Positions 12,601-64,000 of a stretch of 64,000 nucleotides of DNA are shown here, piece by piece. The stretch comes from an uncultured candidatus Porisulfidus sp. GTDB lineage: Bacteria; Pseudomonadota; Gammaproteobacteria; Poriferisulfidales; Oxydemutatoraceae. Both the position numbers and the translations under genes were made by a program. Under the pieces are notes generated by a model. It worked only from the letters and a program-made list of their open reading frames with translations. It searched no databases and was not told the DNA's origin. Where the stretch lies: positions 1,536,001 through 1,600,000 of the forward strand of contig OZ244052.1 of NCBI GenBank assembly GCA_965215125.1. The letters are read 5' to 3'. Position 1 is the stretch's first letter; every line of letters begins with the position of its first letter.

Positions 12601-15600
12601 TGCTGACGCCTTGCTGGATCGTAGCGGCAATCCTCCCAGACTGGGTACTACCCCCATTGGTGTAGGTGCGGTAATAGACGCTTCAGTCATCGCACGCCGA
12701 GATACGACAGCACCCAATCTGACGGTATCACCGAGCACGGCTGAAACAGACGATGGTAAGGTCTATACTTTTTCATTTGAAGTGACGAGAGAAGAAGCCG
12801 TTCGTGGTTTTAGTATTACGAGTTCATATTCCTTATTAGTCGCAGAAAAGGAAGAGAATGTAATGTCCGGGTTCCAAGTGGTAAGTGGCACTAATCCTAG
12901 TGTGGAGTTTTCCGAAGATAGACCTACGACTGCGGTAGTTAAATACAGCGTAGATGTAGATGACCTGCAAAGTAATCTTAGTATTGCTTCTACTTATGGG
13001 TTCATGCTCGGTCGTGCCGGCGGTGGTTTGCGAGACTTGGCGAACAATGACCCGGTGCAGAGCGATGCAGCCGGAGACAGGACGGCTACCGAAGTCGCCG
13101 ACGGACAACCACTGCAATTAGGTCAGGTAGTAGTATTAGATAGAGTGTCGCCAAGCATTACGGTATCGGCAGACAGCATTGCACCGGTGCCTGCTACCGT
13201 TGGTCGATACACGATGTCATTTACAACAACAGCGACCGAAGCCGTAAGGAATATAGCGCAAGCAGGTTCATACCGGTTAATGCGTGTCAGAACCGATAAT
13301 ACTTGGGAGGCAGCATCAGAAACTGCTATGCAAGAACAAGTATCCGTTGGTATGAATAATGAAGTCGACGGATTAGGGACTTCGGCGACATTCACCTATA
13401 CCATCACTTTCACCGGTGAAGCTCCAACTAGGCTTGCAAACATAAGAGGGACACGAGGGTTCACGCTGGCACTGGTTAGCGGGGAAAATCAAGTAAACTT
13501 ACGGGACATTGCAACTAACCTACCGGTGAAAAGCAATGGCGATGCGATATACGATACTGACGGGACGACCTTGCTGAATGACGGGATAATAGCACCGATA
13601 TCAGGTGGTGTGATTGTCGCAAGTGCGGTCGCAGCGAGAGACACGACAGGTCCTGATTTAACGGTAGCATCTATCGGCAATGCTGTCCCGGGTGCGACCG
13701 CTGTGGCATTGAGCGGGCGTTTCACGGTAGGTTCTACGGAAGCGATACGAGATATAAATAGTACGGCTTCATATAGCTTGCTTCGTATCCCGCTAAATAG
13801 TGATGGCAGTCCTAATGATGGGGGTGCGGTGTTAGAGAGCAGTGCGACTTTCACTGTGTCAAGCGGAAGCAATTTAAGTCAATCTGTGACAATTGACTTT
13901 ACTGCCGTGCTTGATGATGTTGTCCAAGTGCGAGGCACTTATGGTTTCACATTGGCGAGTGCGATTGTTGCGGGCGGTGGATTGCGAGACATATGGGGCA
14001 ATGCGGTGGTTGCGATTTCAGCCGAGCAGAACAGGCTGACAGCCGGCAATAATGCAGTGGTGGCAATAGAGAAAGTTCCCCCACAAATCACGATAGCAGG
14101 TTCTCCGACACTGACTTTAGATGCCGACACCGCTACTGCGACCTTTGTGGTGTTGGCAAGTGAGGATGTAGAGACCTTGGATGAAGGGGATTCATATCAG
14201 CTATACCGATTTGAAGGCGGCACCGGTTCTCCGGTAAGCGGTGCCACGGCGACGATTGATCCCCGTAGTGATAACCGCAGAACGACTCTGACTTATGTTG
14301 TGACATTGACTGCTCAAGAGGTGATGGACACGGAGAGCTTTGGTTTATACCGAGCTGAAGATAATACGAAATTGTTGGATAATTCAGGCAATTTACCTGT
14401 GCAAGGTGATGGTTCGACATTAATAGCTACAGGCACGGAGATAGACTCGACCCGGCGTGCCGTCAAGGAGACCGAGGGTGCGATGATTACGGTGGCTATC
14501 GTTGATCAAGTTGATGCAGATAATGATGTTGAGGCAGACCCGAATCCTAACGACGGAAACCAATATACCATAGGTTTCACGGTCACGAATACAGACCACG
14601 GCACTCAATCTATTAGCGATCTTGCTACTACAGCTTCTTATACGATACTGCGCAGAGTTGGGAATAGTAACTTGAATACCACTATCACGGTGGTTAGTGG
14701 GACCGGTAGCGATAATGGTGCAGGTGTGGCGACACTGGAGTTTGTGGTGAGCATAGCCGATCAAGCGACTACCGAGATGACGGACGGTTTTGTGCTGGCG
14801 CGTGCTAACAATGCTGACGCCTTGCTGGATAGTAGCGGCAATCCTCCCAGACTAGGTACTACCCCCATTGGTGTAGGTGCGGTAATAGACGCTTCAGTCA
14901 TCGCACGCCGAGATACGACAGCACCCAATCTGACGGTATCACCGAGCACCGCTGAAACAGACGATGGTAAGGTCTATACTTTTTCATTTGAAGTGACGAG
15001 AGAAGAAGCCGTTCGTGGTTTTAGTATTACGAGTTCATATTCCTTATTAGTCGCAGAAAAGGAAGAGAATGTAATGTCCGGGTTCCAAGTGGTAAGTGGC
15101 ACTAATCCTAGTGTGGAGTTTTCCGAAGATAGACCTACGACTGCGGTATTTGAATACAGCGTAGATGTAGATGACCTGCAAAGTAATCTTAGTATTGCTT
15201 CTACTTATGGGTTCATGCTCGGTCGTGCCGGCGGTGGTTTGCGAGACTTGGCGAACAATGACCCGGTGCAGAGCGATGCAGCCGGAGACAGGACGGCTAC
15301 CGAAGTCGCCGACGGACAACCACTGCAATTAGGTCAGGTAGTAGTATTAGATAGAGTGTCGCCAAGCATTACGGTATCGGCAGACAGCATTGCACCGGTG
15401 CCTGCTACCGTTGGTCGATACACGATGTCATTTACAACAACAGCGACCGAAGCCGTAAGGAATATAGCGCAAGCAGGTTCATACCGGTTAATGCGTGTCA
15501 GAACCGATAATACTTGGGAGGCAGCATCATTAACTGCTTCGCAAGAACCAGTATCCGTTGGTATGAATAATGAAGTTGACGGATTAGGGACTTCGGCGAC

Positions 15601-18600
15601 ATTCACCTATACCATCACTTTCACCGGTGAAGCTCCAACTAGGCTTGCAAACATAAGAGGGACACGAGGGTTCACGCTGGCACTGGTTAGCGGGGAAAAT
15701 CAAGTAAACTTACGAGACATTGCAACTAACCTACCGGTGAAAAGCAATGGCGATGCGATATACGATACTGACGGGACGACCTTGCTGGATGACGGGATAA
15801 TAGCCCCGATATCAGGTGGTGTGATTGTCGCAAGTGCGGTCGCAGCGAGAGACACGACAGGTCCTGATTTAACGGTAGCATCTATCGGCAATGCTGTCCC
15901 GGGTGCGACCGCTGTGGCATTGAGCGGGCGTTTCACGGTAGGTTCTACGGAAGCGATACGAGATATAAATAGTACGGCTTCATATAGCTTGCTTCGTATC
16001 CCGCTAAATAGTGATGGCAGTCCTAATGATGGGGGTGCGGTGTTAGAGAGCAGTGCGACTTTCACTGTGTCAAGCGGAAGCAATTTAAGTCAATCTGTGA
16101 CAATTGACTTTACTGCCGTGCTTGATGATGTTGTCCAAGTGCGAGGCACTTATGGTTTCACATTGGCGAGTGCGATTGTTGCGGGCGGTGGATTGCGAGA
16201 CATATGGGGCAATGCGGTGGTTGCGATTTCAGCCGAGCAGAACAGGCTGACAGCCGGCAATAATGCAGTGGTGGCAATAGAGAAAGTTCCCCCACAAATC
16301 ACGATAGCAGGTTCTCCGACACTGACTTTAGATGCCGACACCGCTACTGCGACCTTTGTGGTGTTGGCAAGTGAGGATGTAGAGACCTTGGATGAAGGGG
16401 ATTCATATCAGCTATACCGATTTGAAGGCGGCACCGGTTCTCCGGTAAGCGGTGCCACGGCGACGATTGATCCCCGTAGTGATAACCGCAGAACGACTCT
16501 GACTTATGTTGTGACATTGACTGCTCAACAAGTGATAGACACGGAGAGCTTTGGTTTATACCGAGCTGAAGATAATACGAAATTGTTGGATAATTCAGGC
16601 AATTTACCTGTGCAAGGTGATGGTTCGACATTAATAGCTACAGGCACGGAGATAGACTCGACCCGGCGTGCCGTCAAGGAGACCGAGGGTGCGATGATTA
16701 CGGTGGCTATCGTTGATCAAGTTGATGCAGATAATGATGTTGAGGCAGACCCGAATCCTAACGACGGAAACCAATATACCATAGGTTTCACGGTCACGAA
16801 TACAGACCACGGCACTCAACCTATTGACGATCTTGCTACTACAGCTTCTTATACGATACTGCGCAGAGTTGGGAATAGTAACTTGAATACTACTATCACG
16901 GTGGTTAGTGGGACCGGTAGCGATAATGGTGCAGGTGTGGCGACACTGGAGTTTGTGGTGAGCATAGCCGATCAAGCGACTACCGAGATGACGGACGGTT
17001 TTGTGCTGGCGCGTGCTAACAATGCTGACGCCTTGCTGGATAGTAGCGGCAATCCCCCTAGACTGGGTACTACCCCCATTGGTGTAGGTGCGGTAATAGA
17101 CGCTTCAGTCATCGCACGCCGAGATACGACAGCACCCAATCTGACGGTATCACCGAGCACCGCTGAAACAGACGATGGTAAGGTCTATACTTTTTCATTT
17201 GAAGTGACGAGAGAAGAAGCCGTTCGTGGTTTTAGTATTACGAGTTCATATTCCTTATTAGTCGCAGAAAAGGAAGAGAATGTAATGTCCGGGTTCCAAG
17301 TGGCAGGTGGCATTAATCCTAGTGTGGAGTTTTCCGAAGATAGACCTACGACTGCGGTATTTGAATACAGCGTAGATGTAGATGACCTGCAAAGTAATCT
17401 TAGTATTGTTTCTACTTATGGGTTCATGCTTGGTCGTGCCGGCGGTGGTTTGCGAGACTTGGCGAACAATGACCCGGTGCAGAGCGATGCAGCCGGAGAC
17501 AGGACGACGACCGAAGTCGCCGACGGACAACCATTGCAATTAGGTCAGGTAGTATTATTAGATAGAGTGTCGCCAAGCATTACGGTATCGGCAGACAGCA
17601 TTGCACCGGTGCCTGCTACCGTTGGTCGATACACGATGTCATTTACAACAACAGCGACCGAAGCCGTAAGGAATATAGCGCAAGCAGGTTCATACCGGTT
17701 AATGCGTGTCAGAACCGATAATACTTGGGAGGCAGCATCATTAACTGCTTCGCAAGAACCAGTATCCGTTGGTATGAATAATGAAGTTGACGGATTAGGG
17801 ACTTCGGCGACATTCACCTATACCATCACTTTCACCGGTGAAGCTCCAACTAGGCTTGCAAACATAAGAGGGACACGAGGGTTCACGCTGGCACTGGTTA
17901 GCGGGGAAAATCAAGTAAACTTACGAGACATTGCAACTAACCTACCGGTGAAAAGCAATGGCGATGCGATATACGATACTGACGGGACGACCTTGCTGGA
18001 TGACGGGATAATAGCACCGATATCAGGTGGTGTGATTGTCGCAAGTGCGGTCGCAGCGAGAGACACGACAGGTCCTGATTTAACGGTAGCATCTATCGGC
18101 AATGCTGTCCCGGGTGCGACCGCTGTGGCATTGAGCGGGCGTTTCACGGTAGGTTCTACGGAAGCGATACGAGATATAAATAGTACGGCTTCATATAGCT
18201 TGCTTCGTATCCCGCTAAATAGTGATGGCAGTCCTAATGATGGGGGTGCGGTGTTAGAGAGCAGTGCGACTTTCACTGTGTCAAGCGGAAGCAATTTAAG
18301 TCAATCTGTGACAATTGACTTTACTGCCGTGCTTGATGATGTTGTCCAAGTGCGAGGCACTTATGGTTTCACATTGGCGAGTGCGATTGTTGCGGGCGGT
18401 GGATTGCGAGACATATGGGGCAATGCGGTGGTTGCGATTTCAGCCGAGCAGAACAGACTGACAGCCGGCAATAATGCAGTGGTGGCAATAGAGAAAGTTC
18501 CACCACAAATCACGATAGCAGGTTCTCCGACACTGACTTTAGATGCCACCACCGCTACTGCGACCTTTGTGGTGTTGGCAAGTGAGGATGTAGAGACCTT

Positions 18601-21600
18601 GGATGAAGGGGATTCATATCAGCTATACCGATTTGAAGGTGGTAGTGGTTCTCCGGTAAGCGGTGCCACGGCGACGATTGATCCCCGTAGTGATAACCGC
18701 AGAACGACTCTGACTTATGTTGTGACATTGACTGCTCAACAAGTGATAGACACGGAGAGCTTTGGTTTATACCGAGCTGAAGATAATACGAAATTGTTGG
18801 ATAATTCAGGCAATTTACCTGTGCAAGGTGATGGTTCGACATTAATAGCTACAGGCACGGAGATAGACTCGACCCGGCGTGCCGTCAAGGAGACCGAGGG
18901 TGCGATGATTACGGTGGCTATCGTTGATCAAGTTGATGCAGATAATGATGTTGAGGCAGAACCGAATCCTAACGATGGAAACCAATATACCATAGGTTTC
19001 ACGGTCACGAATACAGACCACGGCACTCAACCTATTGACGATCTTGCTACTACAGCTTCTTATACGATACTGCGCAGAGTTGGGAATAGTAACTTGAATA
19101 CTACTATCACGGTGGTTAGTGGGACCGGTAGCGAGGATAGTGCAGGTGTGGCAACACTGGAGTTTGTGGTGAGCATAGCCGATCAAGCGACTACCGAGAT
19201 GACGGACGGTTTTGTGCTGGCGCGTGCTAACAATGCTGACGCCTTGCTGGATAGTAGCGGCAATCCCCCTAGACTGGGTACTACCCCCATTGGTGTAGGC
19301 GCGGTAATAGACGCTTCAGTCATCGCACGCCGAGATACGACAGCACCCAATCTGACGGTATCACCGAGCACCGCTGAAACAGACGATGGTAAGGTCTATA
19401 CTTTTTCATTTGAAGTGACGAGAGAAGAAGCCGTTCGTGGTTTTAGTATTACGAGTTCATATTCCTTATTAGTCGCAGAAAAGGAAGAGAATGTAATGTC
19501 CGGGTTCCAAGTGGCAGGTGGCATTAATCCTAGTGTGGAGTTTTCCGAAGATAGACCTACGACTGCGGTATTTGAATACAGCGTAGATGTAGATGACCTG
19601 CAAAGTAATCTTAGTATTGTTTCTACTTATGGGTTCATGCTCGGTCGTGCCGGCGGTGGTTTGCGAGACTTGGCGAACAATGACCCGGTGCAGAGCGATG
19701 CAGCCGGAGACAGGACGACGACCGAAGTCGCCGACGGACAACCATTGCAATTAGGTCAGGTAGTATTATTAGATAGAGTGTCGCCAAGCATTACGGTATC
19801 GGCAGACAGCATTGCACCGGTGCCTGCTACCGTTGGTCGATACACGATGTCATTTACAACAACAGCGACCGAAGCCGTAAGGAATATAGCGCAAGCAGGT
19901 TCATACCGGTTGATGCGTGTAAAAACCGATAATACTTGGGAGGCAGCATCAGAAACTGCTATGCAAGAACAAGTATCCGTTGGTATGAATAATGAAGTTG
20001 ACGGATTAGGGACTTCGGCGACATTCACCTATACCATCACTTTCACCGGTGAAGCTACAACTAGGCTTGCGAACATAAGAGACACACGAGGGTTCACGCT
20101 GGCACTGGTTAGCGGAGAAAATCAAGTAAACTTACGGGACATTGCAACTAACCTGCCGGTGAAAAGCAATGGTGACAATATATACGATGCTGATGGGACG
20201 ACCTTGCTGGATGACGGGATAATAGCCCCGATATCAGGTGGTGTGATTGTCGCAAGTGCGGTCGCAGCGAGAGACACGACAGGTCCTGATTTAACGGTAG
20301 CATCTATCGGCAATGCTGTCCCGGGTGCGACCGCTGTGGCATTGAGCGGGCGTTTCACGGTAGGTTCTACGGAAGCGATACGAGATATAAATAGTACGGC
20401 TTCATATAGCTTGCTTCGTATCCCGCTAAATAGTGATGGCAGTCCTAATGATGGGGGTGCGGTGTTAGAGAGCAGTGCGACTTTCACTGTGTCAAGCGGA
20501 ACCAATTTAAGTCAATCTGTGACAATTGACTTTACTGCCGTGCTTGATGATGTTGTCCAAGTGCGAGGCACTTATGGTTTCACATTGGCGAGTGCGATTG
20601 TTGCGGGCGGTGGATTGCGAGACATATGGGGCAATGCGGTGGTTGCGATTTCAGCCGAGCAGAACAGGCTGACAGCCGGCAATAATGCAGTGGTGGCAAT
20701 AGAGAAAGTTCCACCACAAATTAATGTGGTTGCCGACGGTGTAGCAGTTCCGGTAGCTGAGACTAACGGCACGGAATATACCGTTAGGTTTAATGTTGAT
20801 GTTCAAAACGCCGAAGAAGTTAAAGGACTAGGCGATACGAGTTCTTACAATGTAATCCGTATTGGAGATTCGGGGAATACCACAGCCACTGCAGTAAGTG
20901 GCAACTCCAATGCCGATAATACAACCGCAACCTTGGTTTATGAAGTGGCAGTAGCTTCTCCGGTAGGCATAACAGGTTTCACTTTAGCGGGTGGCAGCGA
21001 CGTAGAGGCATTGAGAGACAATTCGGGCAATTTAGCTGTTCAAGGTAGCAGTACTACTACCAAAATAGCTACCGGTGTGCGCATAGATGACGATGGGACG
21101 GCATTAGCGCAAAGAGATACGATGCCCCCGGCAATTACGGTGGTAGCGGGTGCTGATGATGCCGTTCTGCAAGCACAAGCAGAAGCAGGCAATACATACC
21201 GGATGATGTTCACGGTCACGGTTGCAGATGATGATAATGTGCCGAGCCTGAACACAACATCTTCTTACCAATTAGTGCGTATATTCAAGGATGGCAGGGT
21301 TCCCGAGTTAGTTCGTGGTGCTACGGTTGAGGCAGCCGACAATGTATTCACATACACGGCAATGCTGACGACAGACATTGAGGATACGGAAGGGTTTACA
21401 CTGGCGCGTTCTAGCGACGAGACCAGCTTATTGGATGCATCGGGCAATATGCCGGTTAAGAATGATGGAACCACCATGATAGCTATCGGGGATGTGATCG
21501 CTCCGATAGACGACGACGGACAAGTTGTGCGAAGTGCAATAGCACGAACGCCACGAAGTGACGACGATACCTTGATAGGCTTGGTGTTGAGAAACTTGAT

Positions 21601-22540
21601 AGCCTCTGCATTGACAGATATAGAACTTGATCCCGACTTTACCAAAGACCAAATAACTTATACGGCAAGTGTGATATTTAGTGTAAGCAGTGTGGAAGTG
21701 ACACCAACGGCGAATAGTGCTTATGCCACTATCATGGTTAACGGCGAGGAGTTGACTGATAGTACGAGCAATGTGGTATTAAACAATCCAGCCGAAATGG
21801 TAGAAACGGAAGTCGCAGTTAAAGTGATTGCTGAAGATGACATTACATCCCAAACTTATACTATAGCGATTATGCGGGCAGCAACGGAGAGCAGCGATGC
21901 AAGACTCAGAAGCTTATCATTAGACAATATCCCGTTTACCTTTAATCCCTCAACGAATACTTATAGTATAACGGTTAATCATGGGGTGGAAAAGACAACG
22001 GTGACGGCAATGGTATTTCATCCGGGAGCAAGGGTCACAAGGCTTACCTTAGACGGCACCTCGCAAAATGATCCCGCTATTGATTTGAAAGTGGGTTCCA
22101 ATGTAATTGCGATTAGAGTTATTGCCGAAGATACTTCACCGAGCACCTATACCATAACCATCACGCGTCTGGAAAACAACGATACAGGACTCAGAAGCTT
22201 ATCATTAGACAATATCCCGTTTACCTTTAATCCCTCAACGAGGACTTATGAGATAATGGTCGGAGAGGAGATAACCGAGACGACGGTGACGGCAGTGGTA
22301 TCTTTCAATGGAGCAATGATTACAGATCTTACGGTAAACGATAATGCACAGACTTTCACTGTCGGCACGAATATAGAAGAGAGTATCGCATTAAATACGG
22401 ATAATACTGTAATAGAGATCACCGTGACCGCAGCAAATAGTACTACAGACACTTATACCCTAACTATCACGCGTGCACAACCGCCGGTTTCCGACATTCG
22501 TCTCCGTATCAAGGTATTTCTTGAAGGCCCCTTGCAATAG
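9689..22540 (+). CDS. Giant secreted repetitive surface protein/adhesin (Ig-like repeats, three C-terminal cadherin-like beta-sandwich domains, C-terminal KVFLEGP motif)
   Basis: 4283-aa ORF, signal peptide ..GSAFA|Q, repeated DTT(A/G)P.(I/L)TV domain starts, T/S/D/V-rich; cadherin-like F.P....Y...V...V....VT..A...V.AE.....TY.I.I.R domains at ~21560-22475. Confidence 0.85.
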   Translation: MIAKQRNPIRKIFTILLLLLVGSAFAQTSFVQSRFSGMPSDENEIAGECNDCQPSVDGVLEYRIAMEELESDRVNTTATYNVQMRIIGGNTITKGATRLAFASARLTYNTDAFGKKAKENNKCDYDVVGAFAEQGKGYSYTFNDTTDDSFTITAYTPARTTTASNLVQLSETFQDFVKISCNIENSDQDAGVAISGTDITANMIYVYSDANETNTNISARRGIFPLVHNSLRGFRLDEKTWVRDYSRYGDGRGVRLEFSKGIDTQLTEANFTLDATTATTDSVISKVNHNSGSNYAEIEFSQAIGDDILRLVSSSPTVKDADNGELADGNFVAALFYDSVAPRVTAIAQNTDFSGPANRTEWILTFSSAISPSTVNKDSLCVAEMNGICVAEGMTPTIPIIGVRTDGDSPTTLTVVVDQTAGFATGGMRSIEFRRNAIQGATNFKVVEDYQPALRDAVILQQDTTAPEITVARVRSDGTPASASDNLIPVGDNYVMYFQVTANEDVESLDDLDSYQLQDNTGTVVDDAVGSIHSGSGSNRSVILRYTILVSSATSVTYFTVVRSNVATSLQDVASNQPVDVDRNPIANGGIITNAPSARAPRDTTGPIITVGTTTIMPTSSGLKYIVTFEINANESVPTIAEVNSYTVTREGDGNEPSVTDTVDVVANDAMTAATVTYTAAFGSDQYADVRATTGWTLGFVSGALLDVDRNAPTLPDSPLASRDTTAPQITIAGSPTLTLDATTATASFVVVADKAVETLDEGDSYQLYRFEGGPGSPVSGATAAIDPRSDNRRTTLTYVVALSDQEVIDTESFGLYRAEDNTKLLDNSGNLPVQGDGSTLIATDTEIDSTRRAVKETEGAMITVAIVDQVDADNDVEAEPNPNDGSQYTIGFTITNTEHSTKPIGDLATTTSYTILRRVGSNNLNTTITVVSGAGSEDSAGVATLEFVVSIADQATTEMTDGFVLARANNADALLDRSGNPPRLGTTPIGVGAVIDASVIARRDTTAPNLTVSPSTAETDDGKVYTFSFEVTREEAVRGFSITSSYSLLVAEKEENVMSGFQVVSGTNPSVEFSEDRPTTAVVKYSVDVDDLQSNLSIASTYGFMLGRAGGGLRDLANNDPVQSDAAGDRTATEVADGQPLQLGQVVVLDRVSPSITVSADSIAPVPATVGRYTMSFTTTATEAVRNIAQAGSYRLMRVRTDNTWEAASETAMQEQVSVGMNNEVDGLGTSATFTYTITFTGEAPTRLANIRGTRGFTLALVSGENQVNLRDIATNLPVKSNGDAIYDTDGTTLLNDGIIAPISGGVIVASAVAARDTTGPDLTVASIGNAVPGATAVALSGRFTVGSTEAIRDINSTASYSLLRIPLNSDGSPNDGGAVLESSATFTVSSGSNLSQSVTIDFTAVLDDVVQVRGTYGFTLASAIVAGGGLRDIWGNAVVAISAEQNRLTAGNNAVVAIEKVPPQITIAGSPTLTLDADTATATFVVLASEDVETLDEGDSYQLYRFEGGTGSPVSGATATIDPRSDNRRTTLTYVVTLTAQEVMDTESFGLYRAEDNTKLLDNSGNLPVQGDGSTLIATGTEIDSTRRAVKETEGAMITVAIVDQVDADNDVEADPNPNDGNQYTIGFTVTNTDHGTQSISDLATTASYTILRRVGNSNLNTTITVVSGTGSDNGAGVATLEFVVSIADQATTEMTDGFVLARANNADALLDSSGNPPRLGTTPIGVGAVIDASVIARRDTTAPNLTVSPSTAETDDGKVYTFSFEVTREEAVRGFSITSSYSLLVAEKEENVMSGFQVVSGTNPSVEFSEDRPTTAVFEYSVDVDDLQSNLSIASTYGFMLGRAGGGLRDLANNDPVQSDAAGDRTATEVADGQPLQLGQVVVLDRVSPSITVSADSIAPVPATVGRYTMSFTTTATEAVRNIAQAGSYRLMRVRTDNTWEAASLTASQEPVSVGMNNEVDGLGTSATFTYTITFTGEAPTRLANIRGTRGFTLALVSGENQVNLRDIATNLPVKSNGDAIYDTDGTTLLDDGIIAPISGGVIVASAVAARDTTGPDLTVASIGNAVPGATAVALSGRFTVGSTEAIRDINSTASYSLLRIPLNSDGSPNDGGAVLESSATFTVSSGSNLSQSVTIDFTAVLDDVVQVRGTYGFTLASAIVAGGGLRDIWGNAVVAISAEQNRLTAGNNAVVAIEKVPPQITIAGSPTLTLDADTATATFVVLASEDVETLDEGDSYQLYRFEGGTGSPVSGATATIDPRSDNRRTTLTYVVTLTAQQVIDTESFGLYRAEDNTKLLDNSGNLPVQGDGSTLIATGTEIDSTRRAVKETEGAMITVAIVDQVDADNDVEADPNPNDGNQYTIGFTVTNTDHGTQPIDDLATTASYTILRRVGNSNLNTTITVVSGTGSDNGAGVATLEFVVSIADQATTEMTDGFVLARANNADALLDSSGNPPRLGTTPIGVGAVIDASVIARRDTTAPNLTVSPSTAETDDGKVYTFSFEVTREEAVRGFSITSSYSLLVAEKEENVMSGFQVAGGINPSVEFSEDRPTTAVFEYSVDVDDLQSNLSIVSTYGFMLGRAGGGLRDLANNDPVQSDAAGDRTTTEVADGQPLQLGQVVLLDRVSPSITVSADSIAPVPATVGRYTMSFTTTATEAVRNIAQAGSYRLMRVRTDNTWEAASLTASQEPVSVGMNNEVDGLGTSATFTYTITFTGEAPTRLANIRGTRGFTLALVSGENQVNLRDIATNLPVKSNGDAIYDTDGTTLLDDGIIAPISGGVIVASAVAARDTTGPDLTVASIGNAVPGATAVALSGRFTVGSTEAIRDINSTASYSLLRIPLNSDGSPNDGGAVLESSATFTVSSGSNLSQSVTIDFTAVLDDVVQVRGTYGFTLASAIVAGGGLRDIWGNAVVAISAEQNRLTAGNNAVVAIEKVPPQITIAGSPTLTLDATTATATFVVLASEDVETLDEGDSYQLYRFEGGSGSPVSGATATIDPRSDNRRTTLTYVVTLTAQQVIDTESFGLYRAEDNTKLLDNSGNLPVQGDGSTLIATGTEIDSTRRAVKETEGAMITVAIVDQVDADNDVEAEPNPNDGNQYTIGFTVTNTDHGTQPIDDLATTASYTILRRVGNSNLNTTITVVSGTGSEDSAGVATLEFVVSIADQATTEMTDGFVLARANNADALLDSSGNPPRLGTTPIGVGAVIDASVIARRDTTAPNLTVSPSTAETDDGKVYTFSFEVTREEAVRGFSITSSYSLLVAEKEENVMSGFQVAGGINPSVEFSEDRPTTAVFEYSVDVDDLQSNLSIVSTYGFMLGRAGGGLRDLANNDPVQSDAAGDRTTTEVADGQPLQLGQVVLLDRVSPSITVSADSIAPVPATVGRYTMSFTTTATEAVRNIAQAGSYRLMRVKTDNTWEAASETAMQEQVSVGMNNEVDGLGTSATFTYTITFTGEATTRLANIRDTRGFTLALVSGENQVNLRDIATNLPVKSNGDNIYDADGTTLLDDGIIAPISGGVIVASAVAARDTTGPDLTVASIGNAVPGATAVALSGRFTVGSTEAIRDINSTASYSLLRIPLNSDGSPNDGGAVLESSATFTVSSGTNLSQSVTIDFTAVLDDVVQVRGTYGFTLASAIVAGGGLRDIWGNAVVAISAEQNRLTAGNNAVVAIEKVPPQINVVADGVAVPVAETNGTEYTVRFNVDVQNAEEVKGLGDTSSYNVIRIGDSGNTTATAVSGNSNADNTTATLVYEVAVASPVGITGFTLAGGSDVEALRDNSGNLAVQGSSTTTKIATGVRIDDDGTALAQRDTMPPAITVVAGADDAVLQAQAEAGNTYRMMFTVTVADDDNVPSLNTTSSYQLVRIFKDGRVPELVRGATVEAADNVFTYTAMLTTDIEDTEGFTLARSSDETSLLDASGNMPVKNDGTTMIAIGDVIAPIDDDGQVVRSAIARTPRSDDDTLIGLVLRNLIASALTDIELDPDFTKDQITYTASVIFSVSSVEVTPTANSAYATIMVNGEELTDSTSNVVLNNPAEMVETEVAVKVIAEDDITSQTYTIAIMRAATESSDARLRSLSLDNIPFTFNPSTNTYSITVNHGVEKTTVTAMVFHPGARVTRLTLDGTSQNDPAIDLKVGSNVIAIRVIAEDTSPSTYTITITRLENNDTGLRSLSLDNIPFTFNPSTRTYEIMVGEEITETTVTAVVSFNGAMITDLTVNDNAQTFTVGTNIEESIALNTDNTVIEITVTAANSTTDTYTLTITRAQPPVSDIRLRIKVFLEGPLQ
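11873..20716 (+). repeat. Four near-identical intragenic tandem repeats of 2211 bp (737 aa, about five Ig-like domains each)
   Basis: CAAATCACGATAGCAGGTTCTCC at 11873, 14084, 16295 and 18506; similarity ends near 20717-20721; antisense ORFs recur with a 2211-bp period. Confidence 0.97.
21903..22241 (+). repeat. Exact 54-bp direct repeat between cadherin-like domains 2 and 3
   Basis: GACTCAGAAGCTTATCATTAGACAATATCCCGTTTACCTTTAATCCCTCAACGA at 21903-21956 and 22188-22241. Confidence 0.9.
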
Positions 22541-58373: not shown

Positions 58374-61300
58374 TTATCGTACAGGACCTTCTAAAAACAG
58401 TCTGGTACGGACGAGTAGCGATTTGACTTTGGATCTGTTTAGCGTGATAGTGTATTCTCTTGTTCCGCGCATACTTGAACGGGAATGTGGTTCTACTTTA
58501 ATCACGATAGTTGCACTATCCTCGTCGCTCATGAGTGTGTGAATGAAAGAGGTACTGCTTGTCAATTCTTGGAAGTTTTGGGTGCCTATTTTGTAGCTGA
58601 TAGTATGGCTTGTGTTATTTGCGACGGGGGTTAATCTAATCCGAATGGTTCCTACATTAAATTCCGCCTCGTATTCTAAAACTTCGGGATCAAATCTCCG
58701 GTTCAATTCTATCTGTCTATATATTATGACATCGCCGCTGTTGCTACTTTCCTCAAGTTCCAATGCCACCAGAGTAGGTTGCTGACCGCCCAATATCGGT
58801 CCACAATCGGGTAATTCGGTATTAGGATTTGTATCGCATTGAGGGTCACCTGTGGGGGCGAAGCCTTTTCCGTATCCGAGTATAGGATATTCATTGTTCG
58901 TGCCGAAGTCCCAATCTTCGGTAGACCACTCACTATATATCCCGGTTGTCGTTGTGGGTGCTTTAAGTTGTGTGGCCGACCGTCCCACCGAGCCGTTTAA
59001 TTTGTATCTATCTTCAATGGTTATATTTCCTCGTCCTACATCAGGAAGTTCGCTGCCGTCGTTTTGCCAATAACTTGCATTTGCAGTAGCTGAACCGCTA
59101 TCGTAGTTGCCGATTAGACCCCCTAAGACGGAGGTTGTAGAAGTTCCTATAACCAGACTCGTTGTATAGCTGTTACGCAGTATGTCATCATTTCCCATAG
59201 TGCCGATTAAACCGCCCAAGTTTGTATGTCCCGATACGACACCGCTGGAATAAGTGTTTGCGATAGCACTTCTTAGTCCTGTATGACGACCTATCAACCC
59301 GCCTAGGTTTTGACTATTGTCCCCGCCACCTTGAACATTGCCGGTTGCAAAACTGTTGGAAATTCTAGGAGTTGGATCTCCGGAATCAGGGTTATCATTT
59401 GATCCGACCAGTCCCCCTACATTGAGGATACCGGAGACATTGCCGGCTGCGAAACTATTGTAAATATGGTTTCTGTTAGTGCCGACCAATCCGCCTACAT
59501 CGGTGATATTTTCTCCTACAATGTCGCCGGTTGCATAACTACCGTTAATTGTTCCTTGGTTGACACCGACCAGCCCGCCTAATCCACCTAAATAAGGTTC
59601 GACCGTTAACCTTAACCTTCTTACTAAATCTCCGCTACCGACTATCGCAACATATGCATGGCTATTGATAATACGTCCTCTGCTAAGATTAATACCGACG
59701 AGGCCGCCTATCTGATTATCTTCCGAAATCCGATCTGGTATGCGGAGCCCGGTTATTGAACCGCGCGCATAACTATTAAGAATCAAACCGGCATTGCTTG
59801 CCACCAATCCACCTATCGCAGCGAGTCCTTGTATATTTGCATCTAATAGCCCCAGGTTCTGAATTTTGCCGTCCTCCGTCAGGTGATTAAATAGAGCTAC
59901 GAATAATGAAGTTGGAGAATTTATAAACAGGTTGGATATTGTCAAGTCGTTTCCTTCAAAGGTCGTGCTAAGACCACCGTCCAGCCCACCAATCGGTTGC
60001 CAACCTGTATTAGTACGCCATGTATTCATGTTCGTGCTGTCGCTGTAATGTTCGGGTTCGCCGAAGTTTAAGTCTCTGTCTAATTCGTAGCCGCTGCAAC
60101 GATTTTCTATACAACCGAAGGTGACTTTAGTAGTCAAACTGTTGCTGGTGTTATAAGCACTGCCGTCTAATTGATAGCGAATCGCATCTAAATCCTCCAA
60201 GTAGTAAATCTCTATCAGATTGTCGCCGTCATCGTCGGCTTTTATCCTAAACGGGCCTATTCGTGTTGTCACCGTATGGTTTTGGGCATCGGTGTGTGTT
60301 ATTAGCACGCGATAGCGAGTACTGCCTGGAGTATTATTCGGTATGACGAAGGTGTTGGTGCTAACATCACTAAGATCTATCCAGTCAATGCCCAATTTTC
60401 TTTCTTGCCATTGATATGTGAAATCTCGGTCTCCGTCGCCGTCCGGATCGGTTTTTACTCGGACGGTGATGGTGGTGGTACTTATTTCTGTTTCTATATC
60501 GGGAGGCCCGTTATCTGTGCGATTGACTCTCAATACCGTACTACGGCTGGTTGAGGAACCGTCACCGTCGTCAACTCTCAGTATGAATGTGATGTCACGA
60601 TTGTCACCGGTTCCTACGAAATTTTCGGGTATCTTAAAACTTAAGGTAGGGGCGTTTAGTTCTGACACGCTTGTCGGGTCATCTAGAGAGTGTGTCCACG
60701 CATGGTCATAGGGTTCGGTGCCGCCGGTGACTACGGGTGTCAAAGTAATCGTGCTTCCCTCGTTGACCGTGCCATCTTCGTTCGCAGGTTCAATGCTGAA
60801 TGTTTCGGATATTGAAAGGTTGGGACCGGGGACTATGAGTGTATAAAGTGTACTAATATCTTCATCTATAACTTCAATGGTTAAAATTCTTACTGTATCT
60901 CTTAATACAATTTCTTCGCTTGCGTCCCCGCTACTTCTATTGCTGAAATAATTGATGTCTTCTCCTCGTTCGGTAATGGTAATCGTTGCGTTGTCACCGT
61001 TGACTGCGAACGGCAGGATTTGAAATTTATCCGAGTCTAGGTCGGGGATAATATAATCGTAGATCAAAGACGAGAAAGACCGGTTGCGAAATCTCAAATC
61101 TTTATTGCTTATCTCGCCGTTTTCCAGTAAAAATAAAGCACTCAGCCCGCTGTTACGTTGATTGGGTAACAGGGTGCCGCATTGCGGCAACGAGGTTTGA
61201 GGGTCGGTATCGCATGTGTCTGCCGTCGCAGAACCAAAGATTGTGACGGCACTAAAAGGAAAGTTTTCATAATTGATAGGACCTGCGTGGCGGAGGGCAG

Positions 61301-64000
61301 GATAAATTGTACTGTTTCCGAAATCCCAATCGGTAGTACTCCATTGCCCGTATATACCGCTTGCATCGGTCGGTGATTTAAGGCTTTCGGCAGTTAGTCC
61401 CGCCGTATAAAAGCTGTATCTGGAGAGTCCTATATCATTGAACAAGGAGTCCGGTTTTCTTGCCCAATAGCTTCGGTTCAGGCCGGTAACTATTCTGGCA
61501 TCACCGGGTATATTCCTGCCCACTAATCCGCCCACAAAGTAGTTGATTCTGCTTTCGGAGCCTATCACACAGCCTGTTGTATAGCTATTGGTAATCGAAC
61601 CACCCGCACTCGTTGTGCCGGCTATGCCACCGATGAAATTATCACCCATGACACAACCGCTCGCATAACTGTTGCTAATTCCGAATGAGCTACCTCTTCT
61701 GCCGATGAATGTCCCTACCAATCCGCCTACGCGCATTGCTCCACGAACATTACCGCTCGCATAGCTATTGGTGATGTTGATAAAATTACCACGACCGACT
61801 AACCCGCCTATTCTTTCTTCTTTTCCGGTGGCATTGACTATCGCGTGGCTGTTGGCAATAGTCGTTAGTCGGGCATCACCGACTAACCCGCCTACGTTTC
61901 CATCTCCGACAATAGTGCCGGTGGCATAGCTGTTAGCGATCAAACCTACATCACTACTAGCAGCTAATCCGCCCACATTGAGCTTTCCTCTGATGTTGAT
62001 ATCAAGCAAGCCGAGATTGACTATCTTGGCGTGTCGGAAAGTGCCGCCGCTAGTTTGTTGTCCTGCCTGACCGAATAGCCCCACATTATCCGAAGTATCG
62101 GGGTTAGTTCTGTTAATTTGCAGATTGGAAATCGTATAGCCGTTGCCTTCGAAGGTATTGTGAAAAGACTGATTTATGCCCCCGATCGGCAACCAGCCTT
62201 CATCGCTGTTATCCTCGTAATCGTCAACCGTCCATCGTTTTTTATTGGATATTGAGAAATAGCTCGCGTCACTATCAAAATCCAAATCTCTAGCCAACTC
62301 GTAACCGACACAGCCGGTGTTCGGGCAGCCGTTGGTGATTGTTTTAGCAGTTGTGCTTGCTCTATAGCCTTTTCCGTCCGGTTGATAACGGATTGCATCT
62401 AAATCTTCCAAGTAGTAAATCTCTATGAGTCCGTCGTTGTCTGCGTCTATATCTACTCGGAGCGGTCCTATAGTTTCGTTGGGTACATTCCTAACGATTA
62501 AGGTTTTACTTAAAGTGATGCTATCGGAAGCGTCGGATACGGTTAGCGTGAATGTGAGGCTACGAGTTGACGCAATCTCACCGTCCACAAAGTCTAGAGG
62601 TATAAAAACGCTTATTGAGGGGGTACTTCCATGTAACTGTGAGTAATCCAATGTGGGAGACTGTTCCCACCTAAAGTCATAATTTCCACCGGCGACAACC
62701 AATAGCATGATTTCACTATTCTCATCTACCGTGCCGTCTGCGTTTATGCCGATATTATTTCCGGCTCGGAGTTCAATTTCTTCCCTTATCGCGATAGACC
62801 GCTTCTCAAAGCGCAGATTATAAATAGAATTGCTATCGCTCACCGTAACAGTTATTGCAGTATTTTCCGATAACGAGATTGTGGTTTCGGTACTGCCGAT
62901 TGCCGTGCCTATATCGCCGATTGTGATATTTGCCGTAGAATTGTACGCATTCAGCAGCAGGCTAATGTTCTGCACGCTATCGTCAACCAATACGGTGTAG
63001 TCGGTTTCGTCGGAACTAAAGTACGGTATCCATGCTACACCCTTAATATCTATATCTCTCAAACCGGTGCCCTGATTGGGCAATAACGAACCACATTCGG
63101 GTGGGTCTATATCCTTACGGCGCGGCCGGTTACTACATGTTGACGGGTCTTCATCCACCGTATACTTGAGAACCGGGTATTGATTAGGCGTGCCGAAATT
63201 CCAATCGGCAACATGCCAACCGCTATATATTCCGGTCGCGTCATCGGGGAATTTAAGGTCGGAAGCCGATTGCCCTGCGGTATACGAAAGTGTTGATCTT
63301 CCACTGCCCACTCTGCCTATATCGGAGAGTGAGGAATCATCATTTTGCCAATAACTTGCAGTGATTGTCGGTGCAGGCAAATTACGGGTCGATAGGATTC
63401 CTTCTTGACTATGTCCATTGATAGCGGCTAAACCCCCGAAATCATCATCTTCAGGCTTATCGTTTAGAGTATGGGTAATACGTGTAATAACGGGGTTTGC
63501 ATAACTATTGGTAATCCTATGTCTGTTGGCACCGACCAGCCCACCGCCATCCGCTAAGCTAGAGACTGTACCGCGCGCATAGCTGTTAATAATTTCCCCG
63601 GCACTATTCGCCGGACATCCTATATGGAAACTAAGGCAGTTTTCGCCGACCAACCCACCTACGGTGAATTTTCCGGTGACATTGGCGGCTGCATAACTAT
63701 TAACAATCTTATTGAGATTAGTACCGACCAACCCACCTACTTTATCTCTTCCTTGCCGGTTGTTTGCTTCCAAAGTGCTATCGAAGGTTCCTCCGTTTAC
63801 GCTCCCGGAAACATAGCTGTTTATCACTTTTCCGCCGTTTATGCCCACTAGACCACCTACACCTTTGAGGTAATAGATATCGTTGCGCCGCGCATCGGGC
63901 CTCGCCTGTGGCGAATCGTTTTTCTCAATCCTTAGATTTAATAAACCGATATTTCTAATTACGGCAGTCTGTGTGGTAAAACCGAATAAACCTACCCCTC
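58374..64000 (-). CDS. Giant GLUG-repeat/cadherin-like extracellular protein, 5' end beyond the window, with C-terminal RLFLEGP motif
   Basis: Frame open to the window edge (GVGLFG...GVGGLVGING); many (V/I)GGLVG.N....I.NSYA.G.V.G repeats; modules D.D.D.LIEIYYLEDLDAIRYQ..GC...C.GYEL.RDL.F and DWDFG...YP.L; terminal cadherin-like domain. Confidence 0.88.
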   Translation of the reverse strand, partial: GVGLFGFTTQTAVIRNIGLLNLRIEKNDSPQARPDARRNDIYYLKGVGGLVGINGGKVINSYVSGSVNGGTFDSTLEANNRQGRDKVGGLVGTNLNKIVNSYAAANVTGKFTVGGLVGENCLSFHIGCPANSAGEIINSYARGTVSSLADGGGLVGANRHRITNSYANPVITRITHTLNDKPEDDDFGGLAAINGHSQEGILSTRNLPAPTITASYWQNDDSSLSDIGRVGSGRSTLSYTAGQSASDLKFPDDATGIYSGWHVADWNFGTPNQYPVLKYTVDEDPSTCSNRPRRKDIDPPECGSLLPNQGTGLRDIDIKGVAWIPYFSSDETDYTVLVDDSVQNISLLLNAYNSTANITIGDIGTAIGSTETTISLSENTAITVTVSDSNSIYNLRFEKRSIAIREEIELRAGNNIGINADGTVDENSEIMLLVVAGGNYDFRWEQSPTLDYSQLHGSTPSISVFIPLDFVDGEIASTRSLTFTLTVSDASDSITLSKTLIVRNVPNETIGPLRVDIDADNDGLIEIYYLEDLDAIRYQPDGKGYRASTTAKTITNGCPNTGCVGYELARDLDFDSDASYFSISNKKRWTVDDYEDNSDEGWLPIGGINQSFHNTFEGNGYTISNLQINRTNPDTSDNVGLFGQAGQQTSGGTFRHAKIVNLGLLDINIRGKLNVGGLAASSDVGLIANSYATGTIVGDGNVGGLVGDARLTTIANSHAIVNATGKEERIGGLVGRGNFINITNSYASGNVRGAMRVGGLVGTFIGRRGSSFGISNSYASGCVMGDNFIGGIAGTTSAGGSITNSYTTGCVIGSESRINYFVGGLVGRNIPGDARIVTGLNRSYWARKPDSLFNDIGLSRYSFYTAGLTAESLKSPTDASGIYGQWSTTDWDFGNSTIYPALRHAGPINYENFPFSAVTIFGSATADTCDTDPQTSLPQCGTLLPNQRNSGLSALFLLENGEISNKDLRFRNRSFSSLIYDYIIPDLDSDKFQILPFAVNGDNATITITERGEDINYFSNRSSGDASEEIVLRDTVRILTIEVIDEDISTLYTLIVPGPNLSISETFSIEPANEDGTVNEGSTITLTPVVTGGTEPYDHAWTHSLDDPTSVSELNAPTLSFKIPENFVGTGDNRDITFILRVDDGDGSSTSRSTVLRVNRTDNGPPDIETEISTTTITVRVKTDPDGDGDRDFTYQWQERKLGIDWIDLSDVSTNTFVIPNNTPGSTRYRVLITHTDAQNHTVTTRIGPFRIKADDDGDNLIEIYYLEDLDAIRYQLDGSAYNTSNSLTTKVTFGCIENRCSGYELDRDLNFGEPEHYSDSTNMNTWRTNTGWQPIGGLDGGLSTTFEGNDLTISNLFINSPTSLFVALFNHLTEDGKIQNLGLLDANIQGLAAIGGLVASNAGLILNSYARGSITGLRIPDRISEDNQIGGLVGINLSRGRIINSHAYVAIVGSGDLVRRLRLTVEPYLGGLGGLVGVNQGTINGSYATGDIVGENITDVGGLVGTNRNHIYNSFAAGNVSGILNVGGLVGSNDNPDSGDPTPRISNSFATGNVQGGGDNSQNLGGLIGRHTGLRSAIANTYSSGVVSGHTNLGGLIGTMGNDDILRNSYTTSLVIGTSTTSVLGGLIGNYDSGSATANASYWQNDGSELPDVGRGNITIEDRYKLNGSVGRSATQLKAPTTTTGIYSEWSTEDWDFGTNNEYPILGYGKGFAPTGDPQCDTNPNTELPDCGPILGGQQPTLVALELEESSNSGDVIIYRQIELNRRFDPEVLEYEAEFNVGTIRIRLTPVANNTSHTISYKIGTQNFQELTSSTSFIHTLMSDEDSATIVIKVEPHSRSSMRGTREYTITLNRSKVKSLLVRTRLFLEGPVR

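Follow-up and report, generated by a model that had tools for sequence, protein, structure and literature searches.

The stretch analysed here, which we term the window, comprises 64,000 nucleotides (nt) from an uncultured candidatus Porisulfidus sp., a gammaproteobacterium of the family Oxydemutatoraceae (assembly GCA_965215125.1, contig OZ244052.1, positions 1,536,001 to 1,600,000). It carries genes for two very large proteins, here called giant 1 and giant 2, and next to the former a small gene whose product, P0004, we call the acceptor (Table 1). Giant 1, a 4,283-amino acid (aa) protein of immunoglobulin (Ig)-like repeats, has a signal peptide and, towards its C-terminus, three cadherin-like domains. 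Giant 2 is a GLUG-repeat and cadherin-like surface protein that runs past the right edge of the window; its complete stop-to-stop frame has 2,057 aa and begins, about 0.5 kb past that edge, with a segment resembling a signal peptide. Both end in a 13-residue tag built around the motif FLEGP. We present evidence that this tag is very likely the first strand of a protein module whose remainder is supplied by the acceptors, and that the two parts probably reassemble outside the cytoplasm.

The tagged giants of the window

Giant 1 ends in ...DIRLRIKVFLEGPLQ followed by TAG, and giant 2 in ...SLLVRTRLFLEGPVR followed by TAA. An earlier note on this DNA, made from its letters alone, had recognised this shared ending, and rightly observed that the codons of the motif differ (TTT CTT GAA GGC CCC versus TTT TTA GAA GGT CCT). 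With codons differing at nearly every position, a recent DNA duplication or a recombination site was rejected as the origin of the likeness. Nor does any acceptor-like sequence follow either stop, as the note had also seen: the genes there are those of polynucleotide phosphorylase behind giant 1 and aconitase behind giant 2. Read-through into a downstream acceptor was likewise rejected, as housekeeping genes or repetitive extragenic palindromic (REP)-like repeats lie behind the stops. The Pfam Cadherin-like match stops 19 (giant 2) and 21 (giant 1) residues ahead of the stop codon, at profile position 88/89; the domain is complete before the tail, which is therefore an appendage and not its last strand. 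We accordingly rejected the tail as the final strand of the cadherin-like domain (PF12733). Since PKD/Big_9 domains, GLUG repeats and unrecognised sequence also precede the tail in other proteins, the cadherin-like domain that the note had counted as part of the shared ending is incidental.

The tails fall into two classes, of which VFLEGP[LI]Q is the commoner and includes giant 1 (RLRIKVFLEGPLQ); LFLEGP[VF]R is found in giant 2 (VRTRLFLEGPVR) and in one further giant of the genome. As a separate observation, several near-identical blocks, each of roughly 700 aa, are visible in the translation of giant 1.

A genome-wide C-terminal tag

The source genome is a single contig of 2,220,706 bp with 46% G+C and is 99% complete. 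Among its 39,247 stop-to-stop frames of at least 30 aa, the pattern F[LIVM]EG[PA] has 16 matches, 14 of which lie exactly two residues from the stop and two of which are internal. A position-specific scoring matrix (PSSM) built from the final 13 residues and applied iteratively to the 50,332 frames with at least 25 aa assigns scores of 29.8-47.4 to 21 frames and of 5.5-11.1 to five variant tails, with all remaining frames at or below -1.4; none of 10,428 internal control windows reaches a score of 18, their maximum being 1.3. In all 21 canonical frames of the genome FLEGP is followed by exactly two residues and a stop, and their consensus is R-x-R-x-[KR]-[VL]-FLEGP-x-[QR]-stop. Sixteen of them are giants of 1,509-15,128 aa, and five are orphan fragments of 27-72 aa. 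The five variant tails belong to tandem giants of 5,762-5,981 aa each, which end in INIRVFPEGL[LF]R-stop (INIRVFPEGLLR-stop), and in three further giants a few residues extend past the motif (RLFPEGLLNP, RVLLEGLLPVGTE and RVFLEGSLREISP). By hand-summed frame lengths, the share of the genome taken by the 16 canonical giants is about 11%, rising to about 17% when all 24 are included, whereas frames of at least 1,200 aa as a whole, the longest of 15,128, 14,984 and 11,639 aa, amount to 20.6%. The genome-wide tally proposed in the earlier note thus comes to at least 21 canonical tags and eight variants against three acceptor genes. Signal peptides, which it had proposed to look for on the tagged proteins, are common: a crude hydrophobicity test recognises an N-terminus resembling a signal peptide in 20 of the 24 tagged giants, places three on the borderline and fails one, which is probably a truncated copy.

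Across the 16 giants the F, L and E of the motif are invariant, yet each is written with two to four synonymous codons, and the stops are divided between TAA (nine) and TAG (seven). Median pairwise identity is 77% in the 13-residue tag versus 24% in the 143 aa upstream. The last 499 aa of 10 tagged giants contain Cadherin-like domains in four cases, PKD/Big_9 in two and GLUG in two, with no Pfam match in the other two. By these sequence comparisons the tail is under selection at the protein level. It has neither a hydrophobic helix nor a basic cluster after the motif, unlike C-terminal signals that are processed by enzymes, and NCBIfam models yielded no match on the tails at an expect value (E) of up to 10, so that it corresponds to no signal catalogued there.

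The earlier note had considered that only these two instances might exist, both of them degraded, which does not agree with the many intact instances and with the selection on the tail. More broadly, the tagged genes could be decayed truncations of fusion genes, with a tail devoid of function. That decay does occur is shown by the orphan fragments, apparently remnants of tagged genes that were lost; the alternative that these fragments are the ends of frameshifted long genes was rejected, an upstream long frame being absent in each case. Nevertheless, for the tag as a whole we find decay barely credible, given 16 intact giants that share the same end position, three invariant residues and the varied codons, the 213 such ends with all three stop codons in a relative (G006, described below), and the lack of any module remnant behind the stops in the window. 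One orphan fragment adjoins a gene whose end, judged by eye, resembles an IS3-family integrase.

Tag and acceptor as two parts of one module

The acceptor gene ends 4 nt before the start of giant 1. Its 276-aa product consists of a signal peptide, an X-module-like beta-sandwich without the first strand and a dockerin-like C-terminus, and displays the motifs DPYC...DWVLLELR...ARKPALLL...RHINHLD...YDF. Two paralogues are encoded in the genome (E 1.9e-30 and 2.0e-18), making three acceptor genes in total, each with a signal peptide. The proposal in the earlier note that one acceptor serves several passengers therefore holds with respect to a genome-wide tag and few shared acceptors, and is corrected with respect to their number; past the right edge of the window, where it had proposed to look for another acceptor gene, the genome search gave none. 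Pfam Dockerin_1 matches P0004 marginally, with 23.2 bits (cut-off 22.9), and P0005 with E 2.7e-6, and stays below the cut-off on the second paralogue (12.1 bits). Its matches in the genome are confined to the acceptors, and it has no match on P0009 or on the two wholly fused homologues that were scanned, P0092 and P0134.

A HMMER scan of 1.84 billion representative proteins recovered 1,205 matches to the acceptor at E <=1e-3. The nearest homologues have 260-330 aa, stand alone and carry signal peptides; many of the weaker matches are longer, with the module at their C-terminus. Forty of the best 150 matches contain the motif [VIL][FML][LIV][EQ]G[PA] at 43-64 residues ahead of the DWVLVELR core, most often at a distance of 49 (12 times), and in these fused forms it is typically preceded by L-K. 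Conversely, it occurs in none of the 33 stand-alone homologues in our alignment of split forms (A1). When the profile of A1 was compared with that of an alignment of fused homologues (A2) using hhalign, the two matched with a probability of 100% (E 1.1e-51). Residue 37 of the acceptor aligns with residue 76 of the fused protein P0134, whose VFLQGP occupies residues 66-71; the mature N-terminus of the acceptor (Q33) therefore falls just past the FLEGP turn. The tail in turn aligns to strand 1 of the approximately 220-aa module, the very strand that the acceptors lack. Thus, it is very likely that the module exists in two pieces with a single break point, strand 1 residing on the giants and the remainder on a small secreted protein.

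The split acceptors have conserved cysteines of their own, with C51, C67 and C140 invariant and C129 present in at least 90%, and these are not among the conserved columns of A2. No model in Pfam or NCBIfam covers the body of the module, and the closest Atlas clusters to it are labelled 'hypothetical protein' of Ignavibacteriota and Bacteroidota. Acceptor homologues occur in metagenome-assembled genomes (MAGs) of uncultured candidatus Porisulfidus sp., and the fused module is abundant in MAGs of Bacteroidales, Chlorobiota, Calditrichia, Ignavibacteria-type bacteria and Saprospiraceae. In one fused homologue, P0073, a choice-of-anchor Q domain lies upstream of the module, which therefore sits where sorting or anchoring domains usually do. 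NCBIfam models of type IX secretion system C-terminal domains (E <=0.1) matched none of P0004, P0005 and six fused proteins; the type IX machinery itself was not searched for.

Structural models of the module and of the tag-acceptor complex

The AlphaFold2 model of the fused protein P0134, computed from a 29-row alignment, has a mean predicted local distance difference test score (pLDDT) of 86.7, rising to at least 97 from about residue 61, and its strand 59-65 runs directly into VFLQGP. In a comparison with a library of 48,161 representative PDB chains, the model best matches the dyad of X-module and type II dockerin (XDoc) of CipA (3kcp_A, Z 10.4, root-mean-square deviation (rmsd) 3.6, 148 residues aligned; 5g5d_B, Z 9.8, rmsd 3.7, 146 of 156 residues aligned), the next match having a Z of 5.4. 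Foldseek also places an XDoc chain, 4u3s_B, first (E 4e-3, probability 1.00), though this misses the tool's 1e-3 line. Sequence identity to the matched XDoc chains is only 10-17%. Modelled alone, the acceptor P0004 has a pLDDT of 84.7 and finds the same two XDoc chains with Z of 8.1 and 7.9, followed by a next match at 3.1. Its alignment begins at residue 23 of 5g5d_B and residue 169 of 3kcp_A, as against residues 8 and 156 for the fused model; the acceptor is therefore an XDoc fold without the first strand.

The acceptor (residues 33-276, with A1 as its alignment) was then modelled in complex with the C-terminal 119 residues of giant 1. The interface score ipSAE (interaction prediction score from aligned errors) was 0.84 in all three runs and 0.00 in the best of three controls; in its calibration the tool's mark was reached by 58 of 80 solved complexes and by two of 110 mismatched pairs. 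At least 83% of the contacts were common to the runs, and the pLDDT of the partner was at least 84. On the side of giant 1 the interface comprises residues 4268-4282 only (SDIRLRIKVFLEGPL), and the acceptor contacts of lowest error are at 187-192 (the YTYDF strand), 111-117, 143, 160-162 and 217-218. The acceptor reached a pLDDT of 78-80 in complex with its true partner versus 57 with unrelated partners. Judged from these models, the tail probably completes the sandwich of the acceptor by strand complementation, as a physical association in the cell.

Such an association could in principle be sealed covalently, by an isopeptide bond of the CnaB type or by a transpeptidase. The fold is Ig-like, the fused model bears a weak likeness to CnaB2 and pilin domains (Z ~4), and the acceptor contains invariant D, E, H and N residues. 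Against this, the sole basic position beside the core of the tag is K in nine giants and R in seven, leaving no invariant lysine; the same acceptor residues are kept in the fused forms, where joining is unnecessary; and no sortase-like gene was seen adjoining the acceptors. We hence consider a covalent linkage very improbable.

Distribution and evolution of the split module

We compared 61 genomes, namely the window's own, 18 other members of its family and 42 from other families. The A1 profile matches 17 of them including the window's own, 16 of the 18 further family members and none of the 42 outside the family. FLEGP followed by two residues and a stop is found in counts that, given as TAA or TAG ends and then TGA ends, amount to 14 and 1 in G000, 13 and 2 in G001, 14 and 2 in G002, 30 and 4 in G003, 12 and 0 in G004, 185 and 28 in G006 (213 in total, in a 2.5 Mb genome) and 3 and 2 in G014. 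Outside the family there is a single match in one genome, and a control with the reversed pattern has three matches over the 61 genomes. Among 301 genomes sampled from the class, more than one match occurs only in the genome of the window, with one each in seven others; the reversed pattern gives about 25 scattered single matches. The combination of tag and stand-alone acceptor is, at the level of these genome sequences, a trait of one bacterial family.

In relatives, 12-213 tags are combined with 1-5 acceptors, the extreme being G006 with one acceptor match for all its tags. In three stretches of that genome (for example L096-L098) the tagged proteins have approximately 200-930 aa, are often in tandem and end in RLRLR[IL]FLEGPLR-stop; several have signal-peptide-like starts. 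In other genera the tail varies and escapes the exact pattern, as in ...RIRVFLEGAVIP-stop (FLEGAVIP) of G010 and G013 and ...RIKVFLEGALN-stop of G007; of four such loci read, three end two to three residues past FLEGA and one has a 14-residue extension. G005, from the same genus as G010 and G013, has 27 matches to the module, all within frames of 687-17,496 aa, and no tags. In the three of these matches that were read, strand 1 is fused to the module (...IRARVFLQGAY..., ...ARVVLQGAL... and ...RVGAYLQGAY...), and therefore the fused and split states substitute for each other among close relatives. Furthermore, an acceptor gene is preceded at a distance of tens of bases by an LFLEGPFR stop in G000 and, two times each, in G001 and G004, an arrangement that looks like fission in place through the gain of a stop and a new signal peptide.

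These data also bear on the alternative that some other machinery, such as a PDZ-type domain of the secretion system or a C-terminal protease, reads the tail as a signal in its own right, in which case the resemblance of the tail to strand 1 would be an evolutionary leftover and the acceptors would be unrelated to it. Signals read at the carboxylate typically have a fixed spacing to the C-terminus, and the distance of the tag to the free C-terminus is indeed fixed. However, the acceptors lack exactly strand 1 and nothing else, the complex model passes its controls with the tail alone at the interface, and the fused and split states swap within one family; we consequently regard this alternative as improbable, if less so than a covalent bond.

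Genomic neighbourhood and a proposed function

The third acceptor gene lies in a cluster about 16-40 kb to the left of the window. Upstream of it are gspC, gspD, gspA, gspB and gspE of the type II secretion system (T2SS), and downstream are a 4,559-aa giant with a GlyGly-CTERM-like tail (a glycine run, a hydrophobic helix and a basic end) and then a rhombosortase (TIGR03902, 135.6 bits; cut-off 84), whose expected substrates are GlyGly-like tails. A second giant with such a tail, of 2,074 aa, is encoded elsewhere in the genome. Comparable arrangements are seen in relatives: in G006, gspK, gspL and the acceptor are followed by a 1,382-aa protein with a GlyGly-like tail and a choice-of-anchor U match of 30.3 bits (cut-off 32), and in G010, gspJ-K-L-M-N are followed by an insertion sequence IS605-type gene, three tandem acceptors and a giant. 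The IS605-type gene of G010, between gspN and the acceptors, is of the OrfB/TnpB type with a Cas12f1-like TNB domain.

We propose the following as the best explanation of the whole, and hold it to be probable: the tag would be the detached strand 1 of an XDoc-like module that is reassembled on the acceptors. At least 16 Sec-exported giants would retain only this strand, as their last 13 residues, with the remainder of the module made by the three small genes with signal peptides of their own. After export the tail would slot into the incomplete beta-sandwich of the acceptor, pairing in parallel with the YxYDF strand and burying its V-F-L in the core. An XDoc-like module would thereby be rebuilt non-covalently, and each cargo would gain a calcium-type dockerin handle for attachment to a partner at the cell surface, by a route probably linked to type II secretion. 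The parts of this scheme differ in strength. Surface anchoring as its purpose is suggested by fold likeness and gene neighbourhood and is a possibility that falls somewhat short of even. Export through the T2SS we infer on the same grounds. The most specific version, a natural tag-and-catcher sorting signal in which the dockerin mounts 16-29 giants on a surface scaffold via a T2SS/rhombosortase route, with the GlyGly-anchored neighbouring giant as a candidate scaffold, is tentative. The earlier description of the tag as a genome-wide sorting signal is supported as far as an assembly tag is concerned, whereas sorting is something that we infer.

The main alternative retains the binding of tag and acceptor, and makes the acceptor a periplasmic targeting adaptor or pilot that delivers the cargo to the T2SS. 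It would account for acceptor genes adjoining T2SS genes in three genera, and a recycled adaptor suits the single acceptor of G006 with its 213 tags better than a stoichiometric anchor; secretin pilot proteins are also among the fold matches of the acceptor, at Z of 3.1 and 3.0, within the noise. Yet the fused module of other phyla remains at the mature C-terminus, which suits a permanent handle, and the sole strong fold match is XDoc, an anchoring device. We therefore consider an adaptor unlikely, while giving it more weight than any other alternative.

Several points weigh against reassembly followed by anchoring. The complex model may echo an intact fold with which fused homologues have made the network familiar, and so reflect likeness rather than binding. 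The acceptor folds confidently alone, and the models do not show a need for the tail; moreover, the modelled tail is that of giant 1, of the major class, whereas giant 2 has a tail of the minor class (LFLEGPVR). The ratio of acceptors to tags in G006 calls for expression at very different levels, or for an acceptor that acts catalytically or transiently. Four genomes with acceptor matches (G008, G009, G012 and G015) have no exact tag pattern, and G012, the only one of them searched with the tail profile, gave weak matches. A search of the 99%-complete genome with Pfam Cohesin (PF00963) gave nothing at E <=1, although a divergent cohesin-like fold is possible, and we know of no precedent for type II secretion of proteins of up to 15,000 aa.

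Independently of the tag, a 30-nt palindromic REP-like element has 154 copies in the genome, allowing up to five substitutions, one of them in the window (at ~1953); its consensus was found behind the stops of several giant genes.

Table 1. Features of the window and related features of the genome. Coordinates with the prefix C1 refer to the genome, those with L102 to a locus of G010 and all others to the window.
Feature	Coordinates	Strand	Remarks
Acceptor P0004	8854..9684	+	
Giant 1	9689..22540	+	
Tag of giant 1 with stop	22499..22540	+	13 residues, major tail class, then TAG
Giant 2	58374..64000	-	
Tag of giant 2 with stop	58374..58415	-	TAA at 58374-58376; PSSM score 29.8; downstream of the end of the Pfam Cadherin-like match
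Giant sharing the LFLEGP[VF]R class	C1:119937-130061		
Five tandem giants with variant tails	C1:350114-439636		PSSM scores 5.5-11.1
Giants with motif and extension	C1:32325-48527; C1:310035-328778; C1:2021074-2030148		
Orphan tag fragments	C1:1293308-1293499; C1:1403976-1404095; C1:1829832-1829915; C1:2081681-2081899; C1:735004-735108		
Acceptor paralogue 3	C1:1505027-1505974		
Cluster around acceptor paralogue 3	C1:1496371-1520552		
Second giant with GlyGly-like tail	C1:1831417-1837641		2,074 aa
IS605 OrfB/TnpB-type gene	L102 5965-7284		

Significance and relationship to known systems

If tag and acceptor bind in the manner of the model, secreted proteins would be sorted or anchored without a membrane-spanning signal or a processing enzyme, and a few adaptors would give many unrelated proteins one docking handle. 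It would help to explain the surface organisation of giants that take up about a fifth of the DNA in a 2.2 Mb symbiont genome and would explain what the uncatalogued C-terminal module that abounds in Bacteroidota and related phyla is for. The scheme in its most specific version would amount to a cellulosome-like display in a Gram-negative animal symbiont. The presence of fused and split states in one family offers a natural experiment on gene fission. A short tag with its partner may also be of interest for protein engineering, as a natural and probably reversible peptide-protein pair.

Of the systems already known, the XDoc of the cellulosomal scaffoldin CipA of Clostridium thermocellum (3kcp, 5g5d, 4u3s) comes closest in architecture. 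There an Ig-like sandwich leads directly into a calcium-type dockerin of two helices, to which the dockerin-like part of the present models corresponds in fold, and the dyad stands at the extreme C-terminus of a large secreted protein, which it attaches to the cell surface. There, however, the module lies within the chain of the cargo, whereas here strand 1 and the remainder are separate polypeptides; furthermore, the host here is a Gram-negative gammaproteobacterium, in which a Pfam search found no cohesin.

In chaperone-usher and type V pili, a second polypeptide donates the beta-strand that an incomplete Ig-like fold lacks, and the models suggest the same principle here, with an acceptor sandwich that lacks strand 1 and is completed in trans by the tail. 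The missing strand is C-terminal in the pili and N-terminal here. Likewise, the donor in pili is the N-terminal extension of the next subunit, giving rise to a polymer, in contrast to the C-terminal tail of a cargo here, where many unrelated cargoes share few acceptors. No usher or chaperone is among the annotated genes neighbouring the acceptors, though no search aimed at these families was made. A further parallel is SpyTag/SpyCatcher, an engineered split CnaB2 in which a single-strand peptide tag covalently completes an Ig-like catcher; the present system, by comparison, is natural, and its tag has no invariant residue suited to an isopeptide bond.

Among the short sorting signals that proteins carry at the C-terminus for dedicated enzymes, a preprint (bioRxiv 10.1101/2023.06.07.544157) lists LPXTG/sortase, PEP-CTERM/exosortase, GlyGly-CTERM/rhombosortase and MYXO-CTERM. 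In these as in the present case, a short signature marks many unrelated secreted proteins of one genome and co-occurs with a partner gene. The tag described here differs from them in having no transmembrane helix or basic tail, and its partner is the remainder of a structural domain rather than a protease or transpeptidase. Full-text searches of the literature (with motif strings, strand complementation and dockerin, XDoc in Gram-negatives and similar terms) returned, within the text they cover, nothing that describes a tag and acceptor system of this type. We view the system as a variation on known kinds, and the chance that it merits the rank of a new class of sorting or assembly signal is substantial; it combines features of the XDoc dyad, of strand complementation in pili and of the short C-terminal sorting signals.

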